64,000 bases of DNA from Mobula hypostoma (Eukaryota): NCBI RefSeq assembly GCF_963921235.1, contig NC_086108.1, forward strand, positions 35,466,001 through 35,530,000, written 5' to 3'. The translations under genes and the position numbers were made by a program. Positions 51,601 through 63,400 of the stretch are shown piece by piece (position 1 is the stretch's first letter; each line of letters begins with the position of its first letter). Under the pieces are notes generated by a model. The model was not told where the DNA came from. It saw nothing but the letters and a program-made list of their open reading frames with translations, and searched no databases.

Positions 51601-54600
51601 CATTAATCCCCTCACCTCCCATATCAGTTCCTATTTCACTTGGCCATACTGTACGATCCCTTCTTGAGCTTTCTGCTCTGTTGATTCTGCTGTCGTTCTT
51701 AACTTTTCTTATTCTCACTTTCCCTTTATCTCCGTCCTTTATATTTCCAGTTCATTCCCTCCCCCCACTACTTAGTTTAAACACACCCATGTTGCAGAGG
51801 CAAACCTGCCTGCCAGAATGCTGGTGCCCCGCTTATTAAGGTGCAATCCGTCCCTTTGTACAATTCATCCTTACTCCAAAACATATCCCTGTGGTCCAAG
51901 AATGTAAATCCTTGATTCCTGCACCAGTTCCTCAGCTACACATTCAGATCCATTATCTCCCTGTTCTTGCCCACTCCAGCATGGGGAACTGGAAGCAAAC
52001 GGGAGGTAACCACCCTGGAAGTCCTACTTTTCAGCCTTCTTCCGAGTTCTCTGAAGTCGCGCTGTAGAATGTCTTTCCTCTTCTTCCCCACGTCATTTGT
52101 GCCAACATGCACCACCACTTCCGGATGTTCACCTTCACTCTTGAGGATTCCCTGCAATCGGTCTGTGACATCCTGGATCCTGGCACCAGGGAGGCAACAC
52201 ACCATCCTTAAATCTCACCTGTTGCCACAGAAACCCCTTTCTGTACCTCTCACTATGGAGTCCCCTACTACCACGGCTCTGTCTGACGTCTGTCTCCTCG
52301 GCTTTGCCTCAGCGCCAATTGCAGACCCTTCCGCCTCTCAGACTGGCACTGTCTTCTGTCCGGACAGCTTCCAAGAGGGAGAACCTGTTTACATCTCCCG
52401 GGATGTCCTGTACTTCAAGCATCCTTTCCTTGCTCATCGTTGTCCTCCTACTCTCTTCCTGTATCCTGGGTGAAAAGAGATTAACGCAATAGAAAGGAAG
52501 GACATAAGCCGGGAAGATGTGGAATCGATATGGGTAGAGCTGCGTAACACTAAGGGGCAGAAGACGCTGGTGGGAGTTGTGTACAGGCCACCTAACAGTA
52601 GTAGTGAGGTCGGAGATGGTATTAAACAGGAAATTAGAAATGTGTGCAATAAAGGAACAGCAGTTATAATGGGTGACTTCAATCTACATGTAGACTGGGT
52701 GAACCAAATTGGTAAAGGTGCTGAGGAAGAGGATTTCTTGGAATGTATGCGGGATGGTTTTTTGAACCAACATGTCGAGGAACCGACTAGAGAGCAGGCT
52801 ATTCTGGACTGGGTTTTGAGCAATGAGGAAGGGTTAATTAGCGATCTTGTCGTGAGAGGCCCCTTGGGTAAGAGTGACCATAATATGGTGGAATTCTTCA
52901 TTAACATGGAGAGTGACGTAGTTAATTCAGAAACAAAGGTTCTGAACTTAAAGAGGGGTAACTTTGAAGGTATGAGACGTGAATTAGCTAAGATAGACTG
53001 GCAAATGACACTTCAAGGATTGACGGTGGATATGCAATGGCAGGCATTTAAAGGTTGCATGGATGAACTACAACAATTGTTCATCCCAGTTTGGCAAAAG
53101 AATAAATCAAGGAAGGTAGTGCACCCGTGGCTGACAAGAGAAATTAGGGATAGTATCAATTCCAAAGAAGTAGCATACAAATTAGCCAGAGAAAGTGGCT
53201 CACCTGAGGACTGGGAGAAATTCAGAGTTCAGCAGAGGAGGACAAAGGGCTTAATTAGGAAGGGGAAAAAAGATTATGAGAGAAAACTGGCAGAGAACAT
53301 AAAAACGGACTGTAAAAGCTTTTATAGATATGTAAAAAGGAAAAGACTGATAAAGACAAATGTAGGTCCCCTGCAAACAGAAACAGGTGAATTGATTATG
53401 GGGAGCAAGGACATGGCAGACCAATTGAATAATTACTTTGGTTCTGTCTTCACTAAGGAGGACATAAATAATCTTCCAGAAATAGTAAGGGACAGAGGGT
53501 CCAGTGAGATGGAGGAACTGAGCGAAATACATGTTAGTAGGGAAGTGGTGTTAGGTAAATTGAAGGGATTGAAGGCAGATAAATCCCCAGGGCCAGATGG
53601 TCTGCATCCCAGAGTGCTTAAGGAAGTGGCCCAAGAAATAGTGGACGCATTAGTGATAATTTTTCAAAACTCGTTAGATTCTGGACTAGTTCCTGAGGAT
53701 TGGAGGGTGGCTAATGTAACCCCACTTTTTAAAAAAGGAGGGAGAGAGAAACCGGGGAATTATAGGCCGGTTAGCCTAACGTCGGTGGTGGGGAAACTGC
53801 TGGAGTCAGTTATCAAAGATGTGATAACAGCACATTTGGAAAGCGGTGAAATGATCGGACAAAGTCAGCATGGATTTGTGAAAGGAAAATCATGTCTGAC
53901 GAGTCTCATAGAATTTTTTGAGGATGTAACTAGTAGAGTGGATAGGGGAGAACCAGTGGATGTGGTATATTTGGATTTTCAAAAGGCTTTTGACAAGGTC
54001 CCACACAGGAGATTAGTGTGCAAACTTAAAGCACACGGTATTGGGGGTAAGGTATTGGTGTGGGTGGAGAATTGGTTAGCAGACAGGAAGCAAAGAGTGG
54101 GAATAAACGGGACCTTTTCAGAATGGCAGGCGGTGACTAGTGGGGTACCGCAAGGCTCAGTGCTGGGACCCCAGTTGTTTACAATATATATTAATGACTT
54201 GGATGAGGGAATTAAATGCAGCATCTCCAAGTTTGCGGATGACACAAAGCTGGGTGGCAGTGTTAGCAGTGAGGAGGATGCTAAGAGGATGCAGGGTGAC
54301 TTGGATAGGTTGGGTGAGTGGGCAAACTCATGGCAGATGCAATTTAATGTGGATAAATGTGAAGTTATCCACTTTGGTGGCAAAAATAGGAAAACAGATT
54401 ATTATCTGAATGGTGGCCGATTAGGAAAAGGGGAGGTGCAACGAGACCTGGGTGTCATTATACACCAGTCATTGAAAGTGGGCATGCAGGTACAGCAGGC
54501 GGTGAAAAAGGCGAACGGTATGCTGGCATTTATAGCGAGAGGATTCGAGTACAGGAGCAGGGAGGTACTACTGCAGTTGTACAAGGCCTTGGTGAGACCA

Positions 54601-55660
54601 CACCTGGAGTATTGTGTGCAGTTTTGGTCCCCTAATCTGAGGAAAGACATCTTTGCCATAGAGGGAGTACAAAGAAGGTTCACCAGATTGATTCCTGGGA
54701 TGGCAGGTCTTTCATATGAAGAAAGACTGGATGAACTGGGCTTGTACTCGTTGGAATTTAGAAGATTAAGGGGGGATCTGATTGAAACGTATAAGATCCT
54801 AAAGGGATTGGACAGGCTAGATGCGGGAAGATTGTTCCCGATGTTGGGGAGGTCCAGAACGAGGGGTCACAGTTTGAGGATAGAGGGGAAGCCTTTTAGG
54901 ACCGAGATTAGGAAAAACTTCTTCACACAGAGAGTGGTGAATCTGTGGAATTCTCTGCCACAGCAAACTGTTGAGGCCAGTTCATTAGCTATGTTTAAAA
55001 GGAAGTTAGATATGACCCTTGTGGCTACAGGGGTCAGGGGGTATGGAGGGAAGGCTGGGTTCTGAGTTGGATGATCAGCCATGATCATAATAAATGGCGG
55101 TGCAGGCTCGAAGGGCCGAATGGCCTACTCCTGCACCTATTTTCTATGTTTCTATGTTTCTATGACCTCACTGTAGGTCCTGTCCAGAAAACTCTCGTCC
55201 TCCTGGATTAACCTAACGTCATCCAGTTGCCTCTCCAGTGCTGCAACACGGTCCCTCTGAAGCTGAAACTGGACACATTTTCCGCAGGTGTAGGATCCAG
55301 AGGCACCATCAGTGTCCCTGACCTCCCACATCATGCACGCAGCACACTGAATCAGCCCAGCGGTCATCTCTTCTCCAACTGTGGCGTAGTCTCCACTCTC
55401 AGCCTCCTCGCCGAAGACTCCTGAGCCAAAGACTCGCACTTATCTCACAAGGCACTTCCCTCAACAAGGCCGCTCCCCTAGAGCGAGCTTTGCTTATATT
55501 CGCTGATAATTTCAGTAATTAGCTTCACCTGCCTCGCCTCCTTCGACCTGGAAGGTCTGGTTAGCTCGCTGCTTACAACCGGCTTTTTAAACCAGCCGCT
55601 CCTTCTCAGCCAATCCCCGCACTCACTCCTTCACCTGCCTCGCCTCCTCCGACCTCAAGG
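48698..55660 (-). mobile_element. Near-full-length CR1 LINE (ORF1+ORF2, disrupted), interrupted by family A copy 4
   Basis: 5'UTR ~55440-55660. ORF1 CAACMMWE...CGKC + coiled coil, then esterase-like VCCLPGARIQDV...HVGTND. ORF2 APE/RT pieces 48787-51718. (CTATTGT)n tail. Confidence 0.93.
52472..55163 (+). mobile_element. CR1 LINE family A, copy 4 (5'-truncated, open ORF2 remainder)
   Basis: Uninterrupted 848-aa ORF 52519-55065, (TTTCTATG)n tail. Confidence 0.97.
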
Positions 55661-56651
55661 GAGGTGTCATCTGCCTTTAAAATACCGCCTCTTCTTTGGT
55701 ATGTACTTATCCTGTGCCTTCCAAATTGCTTCCAGAATCTGAAATCTGAAATAATAACAAGGCAGCCTACAGAGAAGAGGTCATCACCCTGACACAGAAA
55801 ACAACCTCACCCTCAATGTTGCAAAAACAAAGGAGCTGGTTGTGGACTACAGGAGGAATGGAGACAGGCTAACCCCTATTGACATCAATAGATCTGGGGC
55901 TGAGGGTGAACATCTTTAAGTTCCTCGCCATACAAATCACCGAGGATGTCACGTGGACTGTACATACCAGCTGTGTGGGAAAAAAAGCACATCAGTGCCT
56001 CTTTCACCTCAGATAGTCTGAAGAAGTTCGGCTTGAGTCCCCAAATCCTAACTGTACTGTATAGCCTACAGTATAATAAGGGACTACTTTATGTTTTAGT
56101 AATATGTCATTGAATGCGCTATTAGGCGCATATTGAGCATGCGCTATTAGATGCGTATTGATCTGTACGTGTGTGCCGAGTTCAGTTTCTGCCAGTAAAG
56201 AACAATGAAACTTAGCTCCCGTCTCCAGCGTTTTTATTAATAGTATTGTGGTGTAACCAGGCCACATACACAACAAATTGGCAACGAGGTTAATGAACCT
56301 ACATCATATCGGAACGCCGTGTTTTAATTGATAACGACACTCGGAGGAAGAGTGCAAGGAACGAGCCAAGGAGCGGGAGAAGGAGGTAGAGTGAGGCCGT
56401 GAGTCTGAAAGGAAGCGGGAGCACAGCCGGGGTCGGGAACGTCGGGAGACCGAGACACAGCACATCCAGCCGAGACCACAGCCGGTGCTGACCCCCAGGG
56501 ACTGAGGGTCTGCCTGCCCCAGAAGGGAGATAAAAAGGAGTGACACTCACACATCTAGACGGAGTGCTCTCGTGGCACTAGCAAAAAGGTCATATGAGTC
56601 AAAAAGAAAACAAGGGGAAAACAGGGCTAAATTAACATAACAAAGATTGCA

Positions 56652-57420
56652 ATGATTGGAACCATTATAGCATTTGATAGCGGCATTGAAGACTGGGCAA
56701 CCTAAATTGAAAGAGTGGAGTTATATTGTGAGGCTAACAGTGTCAAGGATGAAAAGAAAACCAGCGTCTTACTCAGTATTATGGGAGCAAAAACATACGG
56801 CCTTCTACGGAGCTTGTTAACCCCTGAAAAGCCAACTGACAAAACATACAAGCAAATAGTAGACACTCTCCAACAGCATTTAAACCCCAAACCACTGGTC
56901 ATTGCTGAAAGATTTAAATTTCACAATCGGAATCAGAGCAAAAATGAAAGCATTTCTGAATATTGTGCTGAATTGCACAAATTATCAGAACATTGTCAAT
57001 TTGGAGCTGGTCTATCGGACGAGTTCAGGGATAGGTTAGTGTGTGGCACGCACTGTGAAACCACACAAAAGAAGCTTCTGTGTGAAAGAGACCTCACATT
57101 CGAGAAAGCGCTAAACATTGCAATATCAATGGAAACAGCAGCACGGGGTGCTTCTGAGATACAATAAAAATCTCTAGAATATGCCACAAATAAAATGTCA
57201 CTGAACAGAAATGAAGGAAAGAAGTGTTACCGTTGTGGGAACAGGTCACATGACCCTGATGAGAGTGCATCCCAAAGGCAAAATTAAAGTGACAGTGTCC
57301 TACGAAGACAAAACACAGCAGCTGAACCTCTATGTACTGAAAAATGGAGGACCACAGTTGCTGGGATGTGAATGGCTCAGAAAAATCCAGTTGGATTGGC
57401 ACACCATCAATGCACTAGAT
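56652..57420 (+). pseudogene. Gypsy gag (with stops, truncated Zn knuckle) plus C-terminal protease remnant
   Basis: MIGTIIAFDSGIEDWAT*IERVELYCEAN...HLNPKPLVIAERFKFHNRNQ...RDRLVCG...CYRCGNRSH, then frameshift to PKGKIKVTVSY...GGPQLLGCEWLRKIQLDW. Confidence 0.85.
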
Positions 57421-58603
57421 CAGGGGTCCCTAACCTTCTTCGCACGGCGGACTGGTTTCATATTGACGATATTCTTGCGGACCGGCCGACCGGGGGGGGG
57501 TGTGGGGGGGGAGGTGTAGGGTTGCCAAAGGACGAGAGTAGCAGTCAAATACACTGGGTTTACCCCGAGAAAGACTACAATGACCATGAAGCCTCGCGCG
57601 GGCACCAGTGCGCATGCGTGTACGGTTGTTTTCTACAAATCATTTTTGGCGATTCTGTTCGGGGGGGGAGGGGGGTCTTAATCACGACTGGAATATCGGT
57701 GATAAGTGGCTAATACACTCAATTTCCTTTCTAAAAGGGTTTATCTAACGAATTTAATATTAAACACACAGCGCATATTTTCCTCGCATGAATGTACTGA
57801 TAAGTCAATTGTCAGGGGAGCTTGAAGTAAGTTTTGAACGAACTTCCAGTAGAAGTGGTAGAGGCAGGTTCGATATTATCATTTAAAGAAAAATTGGATA
57901 GCTATATGGACAGGAAAGAAATGGTGGGTTATGGGCTGAGTGCAGGTCGGTGGGACTAGGTGAGAGTAGCGTTCGGCACGGACTAGAAGGGCTGAGATGG
58001 CCTGTTTCCATGCTGTAATTGTTAAATGGTTTTATAAGTCAATAGCATCATAACATTTTAAGTAACGTTTGGATAATAAACACGCAGCACATATTTTCCC
58101 CGTGTGAACATATAAAATCATTGCAACACACCAATATCACTGAATCAGTGGGAGCCCTGGGCTTGCTTCCCTGCAACAAGACGGTCCGATCGAGGGGTGA
58201 TTGGAGACAGCGATACTCGAAGAGGGTTCCTTATGTCCAGTCTATTCCACAATTTGGTTTTCATTTCATTCATTGCAGAGATATGTTGGAAATGGAAGCA
58301 ACGTTTTCAGTGCCTTCGTGGCTTTCTCAGGATATTTAGCCTTGACTTTAAGATCCAGAATGCCAGCAGAGATGTTATGTCAAACAGACTTCCCAGCCCG
58401 CCGTCATTTGCAAGCTCGAGGAGTTGATCTCCTTCCCGCGCTGACATGGATGACGCGCGGGTAATGACCTCGTATGCGTAATGGCTCAACAGTGGGCATG
58501 ACCAGGAATGAGGAAAGGTGCAGCTGACTCCTATCGCCAAATCATATCGCTTCCTCATGGCCCGGTAGCACATGCTTTGCAGCCCAGTGGTTGGGGACCG
58601 CTG
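57421..58603 (-). mobile_element. hAT/Charlie deletion derivative with transposase C-terminal remnant
   Basis: TIRs CAGGGGTCCCTAACC / GGTTGGGGACCGCTG, 8-bp TSD CACTAGAT/TACTAGAT. Minus-strand DQLLELANDGGL...AFWI...NRLDIRNPLRVSLSPITPR..AGKQAQGSH* (~58145-58440). Confidence 0.88.
57810..58033 (+). mobile_element. Short CR1 3' end inside the hAT element
   Basis: gaagtggtagaggcagg...catttaaagaaaaattggatag...ggcctgtttccatgctgtaa, flanked by ATAAGTCAAT (57800-57809 / 58034-58043). Confidence 0.75.
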
Positions 58604-58644
58604 TACTAGATGTGTCGACAAAGGAGGGCAGCTCGGTGGGGGAG

Positions 58645-59579
58645 ATGTCCACAGCTCTCCTCTCACCCATTGTCGACTATTACAATGATGAGGAGGAGCT
58701 AGACGGTGTCGACGATGAGACGAATGCAGTATCCGTGGCTGCGACTCGGATGAAGATACAAAGGATGCAAGGGAGACAGATATTGTCAATAAGCAGGATG
58801 ATGAGGACTACCTGGAAGTAAAAGAGCAGATGTACCAGGAGAAATTGACATCTCTCAGAAGACAGCTACAGCAATTACAGGAAGGCACTTTGCAGGAGTA
58901 TCAGAAAAGGATGAAGAAACTAGATCAACAATACAAGGGAAGAATAAGAAATGCAGAGCTTTTTCTGCAACTGGAGACAGAATAAGTGGAAAGGAATTGC
59001 ATTAAAGAGAAGAAAGCAACAGTGAAGGAATTTGAAGATAAAAAGATTGAGTTTGAAGAAAAGAAAAAGATGATTGAGAATGAGAGGCTAACAATGGAAC
59101 TCACAGGAGATTCGATGGAGGTAAAGCCAATAATGACTAGGAAACTAAGGAAGAGATCTAATGACCCTGCTCCAATTACAAACAAAAGACGAAAACCTGC
59201 ACCTGTGCAGTTAAATTACTTGTTATTAGATGAACAGATAATGGAAGATCTGTGAACTCTCAATAAGCTTAAATCTCCGAAAAGACCAGCATCTCCATCT
59301 TCTCCTGAGCATCTTCCCAGTTCTCCTGCTGAATCACCAGCACAAAGATATGAAGCACAAATAGAAGATGGAAAGTTATATTACGATAAGAGATGGTATC
59401 ATAAAGGTCAGGCTATCTATTTGGAATTTAAGGAGCATACAACGATTGGCTGTGTAATTAGCTCAGTTGGAACAAATGAGATACGGTTAAGGAAGACAAG
59501 TGATAGCACAAAGGTGCGTATATATCTAGGACAGCTACACAGAGGAGTCTTCATTATACCAAGGTTATCTGCTACCTAG
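58645..59579 (+). pseudogene. SUDS3: Processed (intronless) pseudogene of Sin3 HDAC corepressor component SDS3
   Basis: MSTALLSPIVDYYNDEEELD...KEQMYQEKL...[19 protein letters not shown]...[21 protein letters not shown]...[16 protein letters not shown]...[15 protein letters not shown]...[17 protein letters not shown]. Frameshift at ~58720, stops at 58983 and 59253. Confidence 0.95.
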
Positions 59580-60439
59580 AATTCTTAGCAAGTTGGAGGT
59601 GGAATTCTTAACTCACTATGCTCAGAGGTCAACTTTTAACGACTTTTATATGGAAATCTGTATTAAAACAAACAAGTTTATTGACAGACATTACCCAGAG
59701 AGACAAAGAAGGCCCCCCCCCCTCCGCCAGAGACCTGAGTTATAAATGGGTCTTAGACCAAAAGTAAAAAAAAGGCTTGTTATAATTTGACATATTACGT
59801 TACACTGTTATAATTTGATATTATTAAGTTACTAAGTAAACAAATATTAGGCATTTGTATGTTAAGGGTAAACATATTTATTTGTTTAGAATATACACTA
59901 TTAAAATAAAAGGGGAGGAGTGTACCGTATAGTAAGGGACTAGTTTATGTTTTTGCAATATGTCATTGAGTGCGCTATTAGGCACATATTGATCTGTACG
60001 TGTGTGCCAAGTTCGGTTTCTGCCAGTAAAGAACTATGAACTTAGCTCCCGTCTCCAGCAGTTTTATTAATAGTATTGTTGTGTAACCAGGCCATATACA
60101 CAACACTAATGACTATCTACAGGGGCACAATTGAGAGCATCCTGACTATCTGTATCACTGCCTGGTATGGGAAATGCACTTCTCACAATCACAGGACTCT
60201 GCAGAGAGTGGTGCAGATAGCACAGCGTAATTGTAGATGTGAAATTCCCAATATTCAGGACATCTGCAGAAACAGGTGCACAAAAAGGGACCATAGGATA
60301 ATTGGGGACCCGAGTCACCACAACCACAAACTGTTCCAGCTGCTACCAATTGGGAAACGGCACCTCAATGTAAAAGCCAGGACCAACAGGCTCTGGGACA
60401 GCATCTTCCACCAGGCCATCAGACTGAAGCAAGTTTCAG

Positions 60440-63400
60440 TCGAAGCAAGCAGCTGAGAAGAAGGGAGTGAAGAAATCGGGTAGAAAAAGTCTTTTTTTTA
60501 AACACTGCTCGGGGAGAAGGGTCTGCACTGCACAGGCGTGTGATGTAGCACGCCAAGGTTTAAAAGCAGACCACCATATACAGCGGCCATCGTTGTAGCC
60601 GCCATCGTCGGAGTGGACTGAGTCAGAGTGGGATGGCTTTGGTTCAACAGACTTCGGCGAGAACAGGCAGAGGCCAAGGTTGGTTCCTGTAAGTTTTTTG
60701 TTTAGATTGTTTAGAGTAGAGAGAATGCCAGGCAGGATGTTGGAATGCTCCTCTTGCAGGATGTGGGAAGTCAGGGAGCCCTCCGGTGTCCCTGCCAATG
60801 ACACCTGCAAGAAGTGCATCCAGCTGCAGCTCCTGACAAACCGCGTTAGGGAACTGGAGCAGGAGCTGCATGACCTGCGGATCATTCGGGAGAATGAGGT
60901 GTTTATAGATAGTAGCTTCAGGGAGGTAGTTATGCCAAAGGAGCAGCGCACAGGCAATTGGGTTACTGTCAGGCGAGGGAAGGGGAAAGGGCAGGCAGAG
61001 CAGGGTTCCCCTGTGGCCATTCCCCTCAACAACAAGTATACCGCATTGGATACTGTTGGGGGGGATGACTTACCTGGGACAAGCTGTAGTAGCCGGATCT
61101 CTGGCACTGAGTCTGGCTCTGCAGTGCAGAAGGGAGGGGGGAGAAAGAGGAGAGCGGTAGTGATAGGGGACTCGATAGTTAGAGGTGCAGATAGGAGGTT
61201 CTGTGGTCGTGACAGAGAATCCAGGATAGTTTGTTGCCTCCCGGGTGCCAGGGTCAAGGATGTCTCTGAATCGCTTGCATGACATTCTGAAGTGGGAGGG
61301 TGACCAGTCAGATGTCGTGGTGCACGTCGGTACCAATGACACAGCAAGGAAGAGTGAGGAGGTCCTGGAGAGTGAGTGTAGAGAGCTTGGTAGGAAGTTG
61401 AAAAGCAGGACCTCAAGGGTGGTAACCTCAGGATTGCTACCCGTGCCACGTGCCAGTGAGGGTAAGAATAGGATGCTCTGGGGGATGAACAAGTGGCTGA
61501 GGAACTGGTGTAGGAGGCAGGGTTTCAGATTTCAGGATCATTGGGACCTCTTCTGGGGCAGGTGGGACCTGTACAAGAGAGACGGGTTACACTTGAACTA
61601 CAGGGAGACCAATATCCTTTCAAGGAGGCTTGTTAGTGCTATTGGAGAGGCTTTAAACTAGATTTGCAGGGGGATGGGAACCAGAGTGCCAGAGCTGACA
61701 GTGTGGGTGGGGTGAAAATAAATGATGTTAAAAGTTCAAACAAATCCGCTAATAGAAAGGTTGTGAGTGGTGGTAAAAATCTTCTGAGGTGTATATATTT
61801 CAATGCTAGGAGTATTGCGGGGAAGGCAGATGAGTTGAGGGCGGGGATTGACACTTGGAATTATGACGTTATAGCATTAGTGAAACGTGGCTGCAGGAGG
61901 GGCAGGACTGGCAGCTTAATATTCCAGGGTTCCAATGTTTCAGATGTGATCGAGGCAGAGGAATGAAAAGTGGGGGAGTAGCATTGCTTGTTAGGGAAAA
62001 TACTACAGCAGTGCTCAGGCAGGACAGATTAGAGGGCTTGTCTACTGAGTCCTTATGGGTGGAGTTGAGAAACAGGAAAGGTATGGCCACATTAGTGGGA
62101 TTGTATTACAGACCACCCAATAGTCAACGAGATTTGGAAGAGCAAATCTGCAGAGAGATAGCAGGCAACTGCAGGAAACATAAAGTTGTGGTGGTAGGGG
62201 ATTTTAATTTTCCATATATTGATTGGGACTCCCATACTGTTAGGGGTCTAGATGGTTTAGAGTTTGTAAAATGTGTTCAGGAAAGTTTTCTAAATCAGTA
62301 TATAGAGGGACCAACTAGAGGGGATGCAATATTGGATCTCCTGTTAGGAAACGAGTTAGGACAAGTAATGGAAGTCTGTGTAGGGGAGCAATTTGGTTCC
62401 AGTGATCATAACACCATTAGTTTCAACTTGATCATGGACAAGGATAGATCTGGTCCTAGGGTTGAGGTTCTGAACTGGAAGAAGGCCAAATTTGAAGAAA
62501 TGAGAAAAGATCTAAAAAGTGTGGATTGGGACAGGATGTTCTCTGGCAAAGATGTGATCAGTAGGTGGGAAGCCTTCAAAGGAGAAATTCTGAGAGTGCA
62601 GAGTTTGTATGTTCCTGTCAGGATTAAAGGCAAAGTGAATAGGAATAAGGAACCTTGGTTCTCAAGGGATATTGCAACTCTGATAAAGAAACGGAGGGAG
62701 CTATATGACATCTATAGGAAACAGGGAGTAAATAAGGTGCTTGAGGAGTATAAGAAGAGCAAGAAAATACTTAAGAAAGAAATCAGAAGGGCTAAAAGAA
62801 GACATGAGGTTGCCTTGGCAGTCAAAGTGAAGGATAATCCAAAGAGCTTTTACAGGTATATTAAGAGCAAAAGGATTGTAAGGGATAAAATTGGTCCTCT
62901 TGAAGATCAGAGTGGTCGGCTATGTGCGGAACCAAAGGAATTGGGGGAGATCTTAAATAGGTTTTTTGCGTCTGTATTTACTAAGGAAACTGGCATGAAG
63001 TCTATGGAATTGAGGGAATCAAGTAGTGAGATCATGGAAACTGTACAGACTGAAAAGGAGGAGGTGCTTGCCACTTTGAGGAAAATTAAAGTGGATAAAT
63101 CTCCGGGACCTGACAGAGTGTTCCCTCGGACCTTGAAGGAGACTAGTGTTGAAATTGCAGAGGCCCTAGCAGAAATATTTAAAATGTTGCTGTCTACAGG
63201 TGAGGTGCCGGAGGATTGGAGAGTGGCTCATGTTGTTCCGTTGTTTAAAAAAGGATCGAAAAGTAAACTGGGAAATTATAGGCCGGTAAGTTTAACGTCG
63301 GTAGTAAGTAAATTATTGGAGGGAGTACTAAGAGACAGAATCTACAAGCATTTGGATAGACAGGGACTTATTAGGGAGAGTCAACATGGCTTTGTGCGTG

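Follow-up and report, generated by a model that had tools for sequence, protein, structure and literature searches.

A Ty3/Gypsy family of Mobula hypostoma in which a captured, spliced SUDS3 mRNA replaces pol and further host mRNAs have been added serially

In a 64,000-nucleotide (nt) stretch of the Mobula hypostoma genome (NCBI RefSeq assembly GCF_963921235.1, contig NC_086108.1, positions 35,466,001 to 35,530,000; G000:C50:35466001-35530000 in our numbering and, at its full length, the window hereinafter), we identified at positions 56053-60105 a dead, non-autonomous Ty3/Gypsy copy in which a spliced mRNA of the host gene SUDS3 replaces the reverse transcriptase (RT), RNase H, and integrase. 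Searches over the whole 3.48-Gb genome recovered further copies of this chimeric element (chimeras) together with relatives that have pol in the corresponding place (helpers). Our explanation, to which we assign a probability of roughly 85%, is that a Gypsy family gained SUDS3 when RT switched templates at short stretches of shared sequence, and that intact relatives then copied the chimera in trans, with SUDS3 as a passenger. Taken by themselves, the origin and the amplification are near certain, and the passenger status of SUDS3 is likely.

The nature of the cargo was established by comparison with the host SUDS3 gene, which has 12 exons over ~59 kb and encodes a protein identical to P0003 except for an 8-residue isoform insert. 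In the window copy, all 12 host exons are joined and the 11 introns (ten GT-AG and one AT-AC in the host) are gone; the copied segment begins 22 nt before the ATG and stops ~110 nt past the stop codon. Host RNA contigs extend beyond both 3' break points found in the family (the long and short forms; see below). A run of 10 A residues after the cargo is present in none of 101 long- or short-form copies, and the junction listings contain no target-site duplication (TSD) around it. Because the cargo ends inside the 3' untranslated region (UTR), has lost all of its introns, and has no poly(A), we interpret it as an internal piece of a spliced mRNA and not as a LINE (long interspersed nuclear element)-type retrocopy; the poly(A) tail and TSD of its own that mark a processed pseudogene are both missing, as an initial annotation of the window, made from the sequence alone, had already noticed. 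That annotation also called the SUDS3 coding sequence (CDS) full length, which holds for its span but not for its reading frame: the window CDS scores above the Sds3 family cut-off and is broken by a 1-nt frameshift, by stops at codons 114 and 212, and by a family-wide 24-nt deletion. This deletion, flanked by TGAGTT repeats 24 nt apart, is found in 123 of the 130 copies that cover the site, and of the remaining seven, four that were inspected also lack the eight codons. The corresponding residues, KENLIAEL, are absent from five Mobula "SDS3-like" proteins and present in four orthologues (9 of 1211 matches viewed), and a pattern for the eight codons matches a single place in the genome, namely, host SUDS3. 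The AT-AC (minor spliceosome) intron is intron 7 of the host gene (3117 nt; G000:C78, L046) and is cleanly absent from the captured copy.

Helpers were recovered by two routes. A search with the long terminal repeat (LTR) and gag region yielded 39 further loci, three with pol in place of SUDS3 and one a helper-chimera recombinant, and a search with pol recovered many more helper loci, 20 of which were fetched. Helpers with RT and integrase have the LTR, gag, protease, and tail in common with the chimeras. Their domain order (seen in L062) is Pfam RVT_1 followed by Integrase_H2C2 and rve, with RNase H recognized by translation only; this protease-RT-(RNase H)-integrase order, together with TG..CA LTRs, a primer-binding site (PBS), a polypurine tract (PPT), and a 5-bp TSD, assigns them by structure to Ty3/Gypsy. 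They are 4.7 to 5.3 kb long, the integrase ends ~200 nt upstream of the 3' LTR, and they do not qualify as env-bearing helpers.

Alignment of the window copy with helpers and with the parental mRNA, a step proposed in the initial annotation, allowed us to map the break points and their microhomology. At the 5' junction, the helper reads GGAGGGCAGC up to the break and AAGG past it, whereas the host reads GGCGGGCAGC and TCGG, with an overlap of 9 of 10 nt. At the short-form 3' junction, GACAGAC is exact (7/7) in host and helper, and the helper then continues into its last integrase codons. The peptide encoded there in the window copy, RHYPERQRRPP, had been taken for the extreme C-terminal tail of pol and indeed aligns with the C terminus of the helper integrase. 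Since both window-copy junctions fall on helper/host microhomology, the proposal of capture by template switches stands, with one refinement to the number of two: the family has two 3' junctions. The long form retains ~230 nt of extra UTR and joins the integrase tail 15 nt further down. Long and short forms have the same 5' junction and the same 24-nt deletion, and neither is a simple deletion of the other, from which we infer one capture followed by at least one later switch. SUDS3 lies in frame behind gag-protease in 126 of 134 copies, as in a gag-onc-type fusion. In the helper-chimera recombinant (L061; G000:C62:66.71 Mb), helper sequence runs to ~350 nt into RT and there gives way to the final third of SUDS3, after which comes the tail of the long form; the switch lies at a short shared sequence, and the TSD is perfect. 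Another locus (L091; G000:C76:11.19 Mb) is a tandem pair with one common LTR, where the tail and PPT stand upstream of the 5' LTR.

Copy number was assessed genome-wide with 27-nt junction patterns (at most one mismatch) and reversed-pattern controls. The chimeric 5' junction occurs at 245 places versus 156 for the helper version, and the reversed controls matched at 0. Among independently found copies, the patterns recovered 50 of 73 chimeras and 17 of 24 helpers; this suggests true totals of ~360 chimeras and ~220 helpers, which are probably underestimates. After removal of 12 loci as duplicates, 136 were analysed; one of those removed (L055) is a separate place. L055 and L071, on different contigs, have 120 identical SUDS3 bases, though most pairs of copies differ by ~10%, and conversion or late duplication is possible. 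The 5-bp TSDs of 63 two-ended elements are perfect in 39 and one-off in 17 (56/63 at 4/5 or 5/5), with 60 different left 5-mers, each copy having its own TSD and flanks. The initial annotation had supposed that the chimera may have moved as a unit and had suggested counting copies with different TSDs; these counts and the 245 junctions bear it out. Median LTR-pair distances, CpG sites included, are 0.096 for long forms (n = 21), 0.092 for short forms (n = 17), and 0.107 for helpers (n = 10), compared with 0.074 for the window copy. The burst is old and concurrent with that of the helper. A gag-protease tree of 67 copies is star-like, with helpers not set apart from chimeras; it resolves only the branch with a Y-box cargo (see below) and therefore gives no order of events.

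The family went on to acquire other host mRNAs. From the first 100 exact junction matches, skipping loci already analysed, we took 60 copies, which comprise 19 long forms, 15 short forms, 20 with an RNF213 piece, 3 with both Y-box and RNF213 pieces, and 3 cut by later insertions or by the end of the extracted sequence. The RNF213 piece, present in 23 of the 60, interrupts or cuts off SUDS3. It is antisense, matches RNF213 structures (E = 1e-30), and consists of joined exons whose host gene, at C68:48.81-48.83 Mb, was found via an RZ-finger family search; a DNA search with the piece returned mostly further element copies. A second RZ-finger locus (L195; C68:41.30 Mb) was rejected as donor, the captured piece being unmatched in the 50 kb upstream of it; its RZ-finger exon is perhaps a paralogue of the donor. 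The Y-box piece is sense, encodes a cold-shock domain, and is made up of 7 joined exon blocks, whose host gene lies at C75:3.29-3.31 Mb. The Y-box form occurs at ~30 places in the genome, and its join is in frame when judged from the host sequences, as it is in 6 of the 9 copies scored. Both the Y-box and the RNF213 branches are amplified side branches. Exact overlaps of 11 nt, 10 nt, and 7 nt are seen at the SUDS3-to-Y-box, Y-box-to-RNF213, and SUDS3-to-RNF213 joins, respectively. In a copy with SUDS3 and RNF213 (L163/L217; G000:C50:14.925 Mb), a spliced RPS8 piece, whose host exons are at C50:80.95 Mb, stands in place of the 5' LTR end and PBS; an amplified RPS8 branch is ruled out, as this is one copy only. 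In one copy (L135:2992-3308, element strand), the RNF213 piece is separated from the tail by 317 nt that include an acidic open frame of 94 codons and might derive from a fifth captured mRNA. A 57-nt in-frame deletion near the SUDS3 N terminus (mRNA model 131-189), common to L033, L034, L144, L155, L157, and L160, marks a sub-branch that spans RNF213 and Y-box forms.

The initial annotation had raised the prospect of an element family carrying a chromatin-silencing gene and had called for dN/dS among copies. The SUDS3 cargo decays neutrally, and there is no sign of cargo function. Three of 105 full-CDS copies are free of stop and frameshift. Scoring rare non-CpG changes and deriving expected numbers from the spectrum of mutations in the 3' UTR part of the capture, we counted 2347 nonsynonymous changes against 2361 expected and 891 synonymous changes against 847 expected (N/S 0.94 of expectation). 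Frequency classes, pairwise ratios of nonsynonymous to synonymous differences per site (pN/pS), and the UTR-calibrated expectation all returned neutral decay, and the SUDS3 branches show next to no net divergence from one another. Amplified branches include those with SUDS3 cut at codon ~232 or ~121. Thus, with neutral decay and the spread of truncated cargo, the idea that a silencing cargo matters to the family finds no support. Near-fixed differences between copies and host comprise 12 synonymous and 3 nonsynonymous changes; we considered them as a mark of constraint, and they are accounted for by the host's own change since capture, with a host-to-copy pS of 0.087 and half of the copy-to-copy value at 0.043. 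At three sites, which need not belong to the 12 synonymous ones, two more distant organisms have the base of the copies and two nearer ones differ from it.

Possible traces of expression come from assembled contigs. Among four contig runs of one study, which we guess to be RNA, the protease-SUDS3 junction is spanned by one contig and the short 3' join is present in three runs, with no strand or start given by any of them. In a contig run of another organism, a loose end matches the join of SUDS3 to Y-box, which shows neither strand nor promoter. Wherever the contigs of eight runs cover the 24-nt site, they are of the host form; as contigs drop rare variants, this is no evidence of silence. None of the records of the listed holders of the element is identified as RNA.

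We propose that host mRNAs would have been packaged together with element RNA and that RT may have jumped between them at short shared sequences during reverse transcription. The resulting chimeras, with their LTRs, PBS, and PPT, could then be copied by helper RT and integrase, and repeated jumps among chimera, helper, and other mRNAs would produce the long and short forms as well as those with RNF213 and Y-box pieces. For RNF213, the antisense orientation might call for a jump in plus-strand synthesis or for an antisense template, which is a guess. The chimera keeps all of its cis signals (LTRs, PBS, PPT, and gag-protease) and is ~1.5 kb shorter than the helper, and these properties would be enough for spread without any work by the cargo. 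Several observations weigh against this explanation. The overlap at the long-form 3' end is at most 2 nt, and only 3 nt are shared at the RNF213-to-SUDS3 join and at one SUDS3-to-RNF213 variant. Simple minus-strand switching does not account for the entry of an mRNA in antisense. Stops in the cargo are somewhat fewer than expected (152 versus 187), and neutrality of dead copies is silent on a short active phase, the stem being too short to measure. Finally, the reading frame is maintained in the two sense captures as well as across the shared deletion, with a chance expectation of ~1 in 27; this is not a prediction of a model in which the cargo is purely a passenger.

The last of these points is central to two alternatives in which the protein-coding capacity of the chimera mattered. 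One is that the cargo helped: the protease would release a SUDS3 without eight coiled-coil residues, dominant-negative on Sin3-HDAC silencing, and the in-frame Y-box would be a later RNA chaperone. The 24-nt deletion does fall within the SUDS3 segment solved as Protein Data Bank entry 4ZQA, and Sds3 dimerises via an antiparallel coiled coil (PMC8800102). The join lies in frame 63 nt past the protease LDW motif in 125 copies, the catalytic DTG is retained in 103 chimeras, the Y-box join is likewise in frame, and chimeric junctions exceed those of helpers. We nevertheless consider this improbable, since N/S is neutral, the branches give no net divergence signal, those that cut SUDS3 amplified all the same, and a trans-acting factor would benefit helpers equally. 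Non-autonomous elements are often more numerous than their helpers, which also counts against it. The same low standing applies to a fuller scenario, in which the Gypsy lineage used the released, coil-deleted SUDS3 as an anti-silencing weapon and then added a Y-box chaperone and the antisense immune ligase RNF213 by serial capture. Somewhat less doubtful, yet still unlikely, is selection only for a long open frame, through RNA stability or cis-preferential packaging, such that in-frame captures were favored whatever they encoded. It would account for the frame of both sense joins and of the deletion, and gag-protease on the Y-box branch has a net pN of 0.010 against a pS of 0.027-0.031, below the ratio of 0.6 in dead copies; the RNF213 forms, a third of the sample, argue the other way by ending the frame ~1 kb before the 3' LTR.

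Another kind of explanation dispenses with template switching and posits a LINE-made SUDS3 processed pseudogene inside a Gypsy copy with a later deletion of pol, or else segmental duplicates or misassemblies. This genome is rich in LINEs, with long open LINE frames in the window itself, and the antisense RNF213 piece is flanked in one form by a short SUDS3 repeat, so that a LINE-type insertion of that piece is conceivable. For SUDS3, this is largely refuted and, in our view, scarcely credible: the cargo has no poly(A) or TSD and ends inside the 3' UTR, helper/host microhomology is present at both of its ends, and 245 junctions, with TSD and flanks particular to each copy, speak against duplicates and misassembly. 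Template switching followed by copying in trans thus remains the reading that we prefer.

The window copy itself (Table 1) has the order given in the initial annotation, from the 5' LTR, PBS, and gag and protease remnants through a hAT insertion, SUDS3, the RHYPERQRRPP tail, and the PPT to the 3' LTR with the TSD outside, which LTR and TSD comparison and domain searches confirmed. RT, RNase H, and the integrase core were not found inside the element. Its two LTRs are ~90% identical, and the TSD pair sits outside them in an interrupted, older LINE remnant, whose frame resumes past the element (open reading frames [ORFs] at 55910-56113 and 60046-60456). At the PBS site, TGGCGACGAGGT is found in 25 of 104 copies and near variants in most of the others listed; we take it to be a candidate tRNA-Ser-type PBS, and the 64-kb window contains no tRNA for comparison. 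Approximately 397 nt with the zinc knuckle, linker, and protease DTG are gone at 57261/57262 in the window copy only and are retained in others. Equally private is the hAT-type insertion, with TSD CACTAGAT/TACTAGAT, which is missing from 29 of 29 other loci compared. Outside the element, an apparently young, 863-codon open LINE ORF2 frame (endonuclease-RT; 52474-55065, + strand) is presumably CR1-like, and from ~60600 onward there is another LINE of this type, which is broken.

Table 1. Features of the SUDS3-carrying Ty3/Gypsy copy in the window
Feature	Position	Strand	Details
Left TSD, CTAAC	56048..56052	+	Right copy CTAAT at 60106-60110
5' LTR, 223 bp	56053..56275	+	TG..CA; Kimura two-parameter distance to 3' LTR 0.074
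PBS-like TGGCAACGAGGT	56279..56290	+	Candidate, tRNA-Ser-type
gag remnant with in-frame stops	56652..57261	+	Pfam Retrotrans_gag, E = 0.013 (weak)
Aspartic protease, C-terminal part	57262..57420	+	RVP, E = 0.09 (weak); same region as the protease match in L037
hAT-type non-autonomous DNA transposon, 1183 bp, later insertion	57421..58603	.	Terminal inverted repeats 15 bp (13/15); TSD 8 bp (7/8)
5' switch point, 10-nt microhomology (9/10, 7 exact)	58623..58632	+	Helper pol just past protease versus SUDS3 5' UTR
Captured spliced SUDS3 mRNA	58623..59689	+	5' UTR 22 nt; CDS 58645-59579; 3' UTR ~110 nt; no poly(A)
Short-form 3' switch point, exact 7-nt GACAGAC	59683..59689	+	SUDS3 3' UTR versus helper integrase tail
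Last helper integrase codons, RHYPERQRRPP	59686..59718	+	Translation and helper alignment
PPT	59908..59920	+	AAAGGGGAGGAG in 71/114 copies
3' LTR, 185 bp	59921..60105	+	TG..CA

Acutely transforming retroviruses carry gag-onc fusions in which pol is replaced by an in-frame host mRNA, and they need a helper. The SUDS3 family resembles them in having a host mRNA in frame behind gag(-protease), in the loss of pol, and in the need for a helper; it differs in that there is no env and no infection, the amplification is in the germline, and there is no evidence of selection on the cargo. A closer counterpart is found in the LTR-mediated retrocopies of animals, where a spliced mRNA lies between discontinuous halves of an LTR element, with microsimilarity at the switches and neither poly(A) nor TSD, and where 3' truncation, multi-gene chimeras, and secondary retroposition with common switch points are also described (PMC5131818). 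The SUDS3 family shows the features of that class (Tan 2016) in its spliced cargo, discontinuous LTR-element flanks, microsimilarity, lack of poly(A) and TSD, and shared switch points. The vertebrate cases given in the accessible text of that study are few, of which zebrafish has 5, chicken 4, human 3, and mouse 8, with the four-gene "Super" copy at one locus and FAM8A1 in a human endogenous retrovirus as a cited example (PMC5131818). Compared with these cases, the SUDS3 capture is present in at least 245 copies, its junction is more frequent than that of the helper, and each of the later captures gave rise to amplified branches. In maize, the non-autonomous LTR element Bs1 combines pieces of three host genes, with common switch points and partly in-frame fusions; it is present in 1 to 5 copies and is reported to make a hybrid protein (PMC5131818, PMC7264820); transduced ORFs are described as occurring in one or a few copies (PMC7264820). 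The SUDS3 family is like Bs1 in being non-autonomous, in taking up several host genes at shared switch points, and in being partly in frame, and, as far as the available text on Bs1 goes, unlike it in its copy number, which is in the hundreds, in carrying an entire CDS and one cargo in antisense, and in lacking any sign of constraint. In the literature searched, with subscription journals, Repbase, and Dfam outside the search, we found no prior description of a SUDS3-carrying Gypsy family. Judged by these sources, the mechanism is known (PMC5131818, Bs1), and the novelty lies in the scale and in captures that came in series and were amplified.

SUDS3 is listed, along with MIPOL1, SDF2L1, SLU7, and ZNF276, among the top retrocopy parents of cartilaginous fishes in a Vertebrate Genomes Project retrocopy survey (bioRxiv 10.64898/2026.06.26.734816). 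In its accessible text, that survey links retrocopies to non-LTR elements and to filtering that is lineage specific, with 0 occurrences of "Gypsy", whereas the SUDS3 excess found here is an amplified LTR capture. Since the hundreds of "SUDS3 pseudogenes" in this genome go back to one event, selection need not be behind the high rank that SUDS3 holds in the list for cartilaginous fishes, and retrocopy surveys should be read with the caution that one amplified capture resembles hundreds of separate pseudogenes. Annotated "SDS3-like" proteins of two Mobula species carry the deletion of the family, and the elements are therefore entering gene annotations as well. With the host genes, the helper, the switch points, and several generations of chimeras all in one genome, the family constitutes a large and fully mappable natural archive of retrovirus-like transduction in the germline of a vertebrate. 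Set beside the single- or few-copy cases in the sources consulted, it indicates that LTR capture can yield a high-copy, gene-carrying family in vertebrates.

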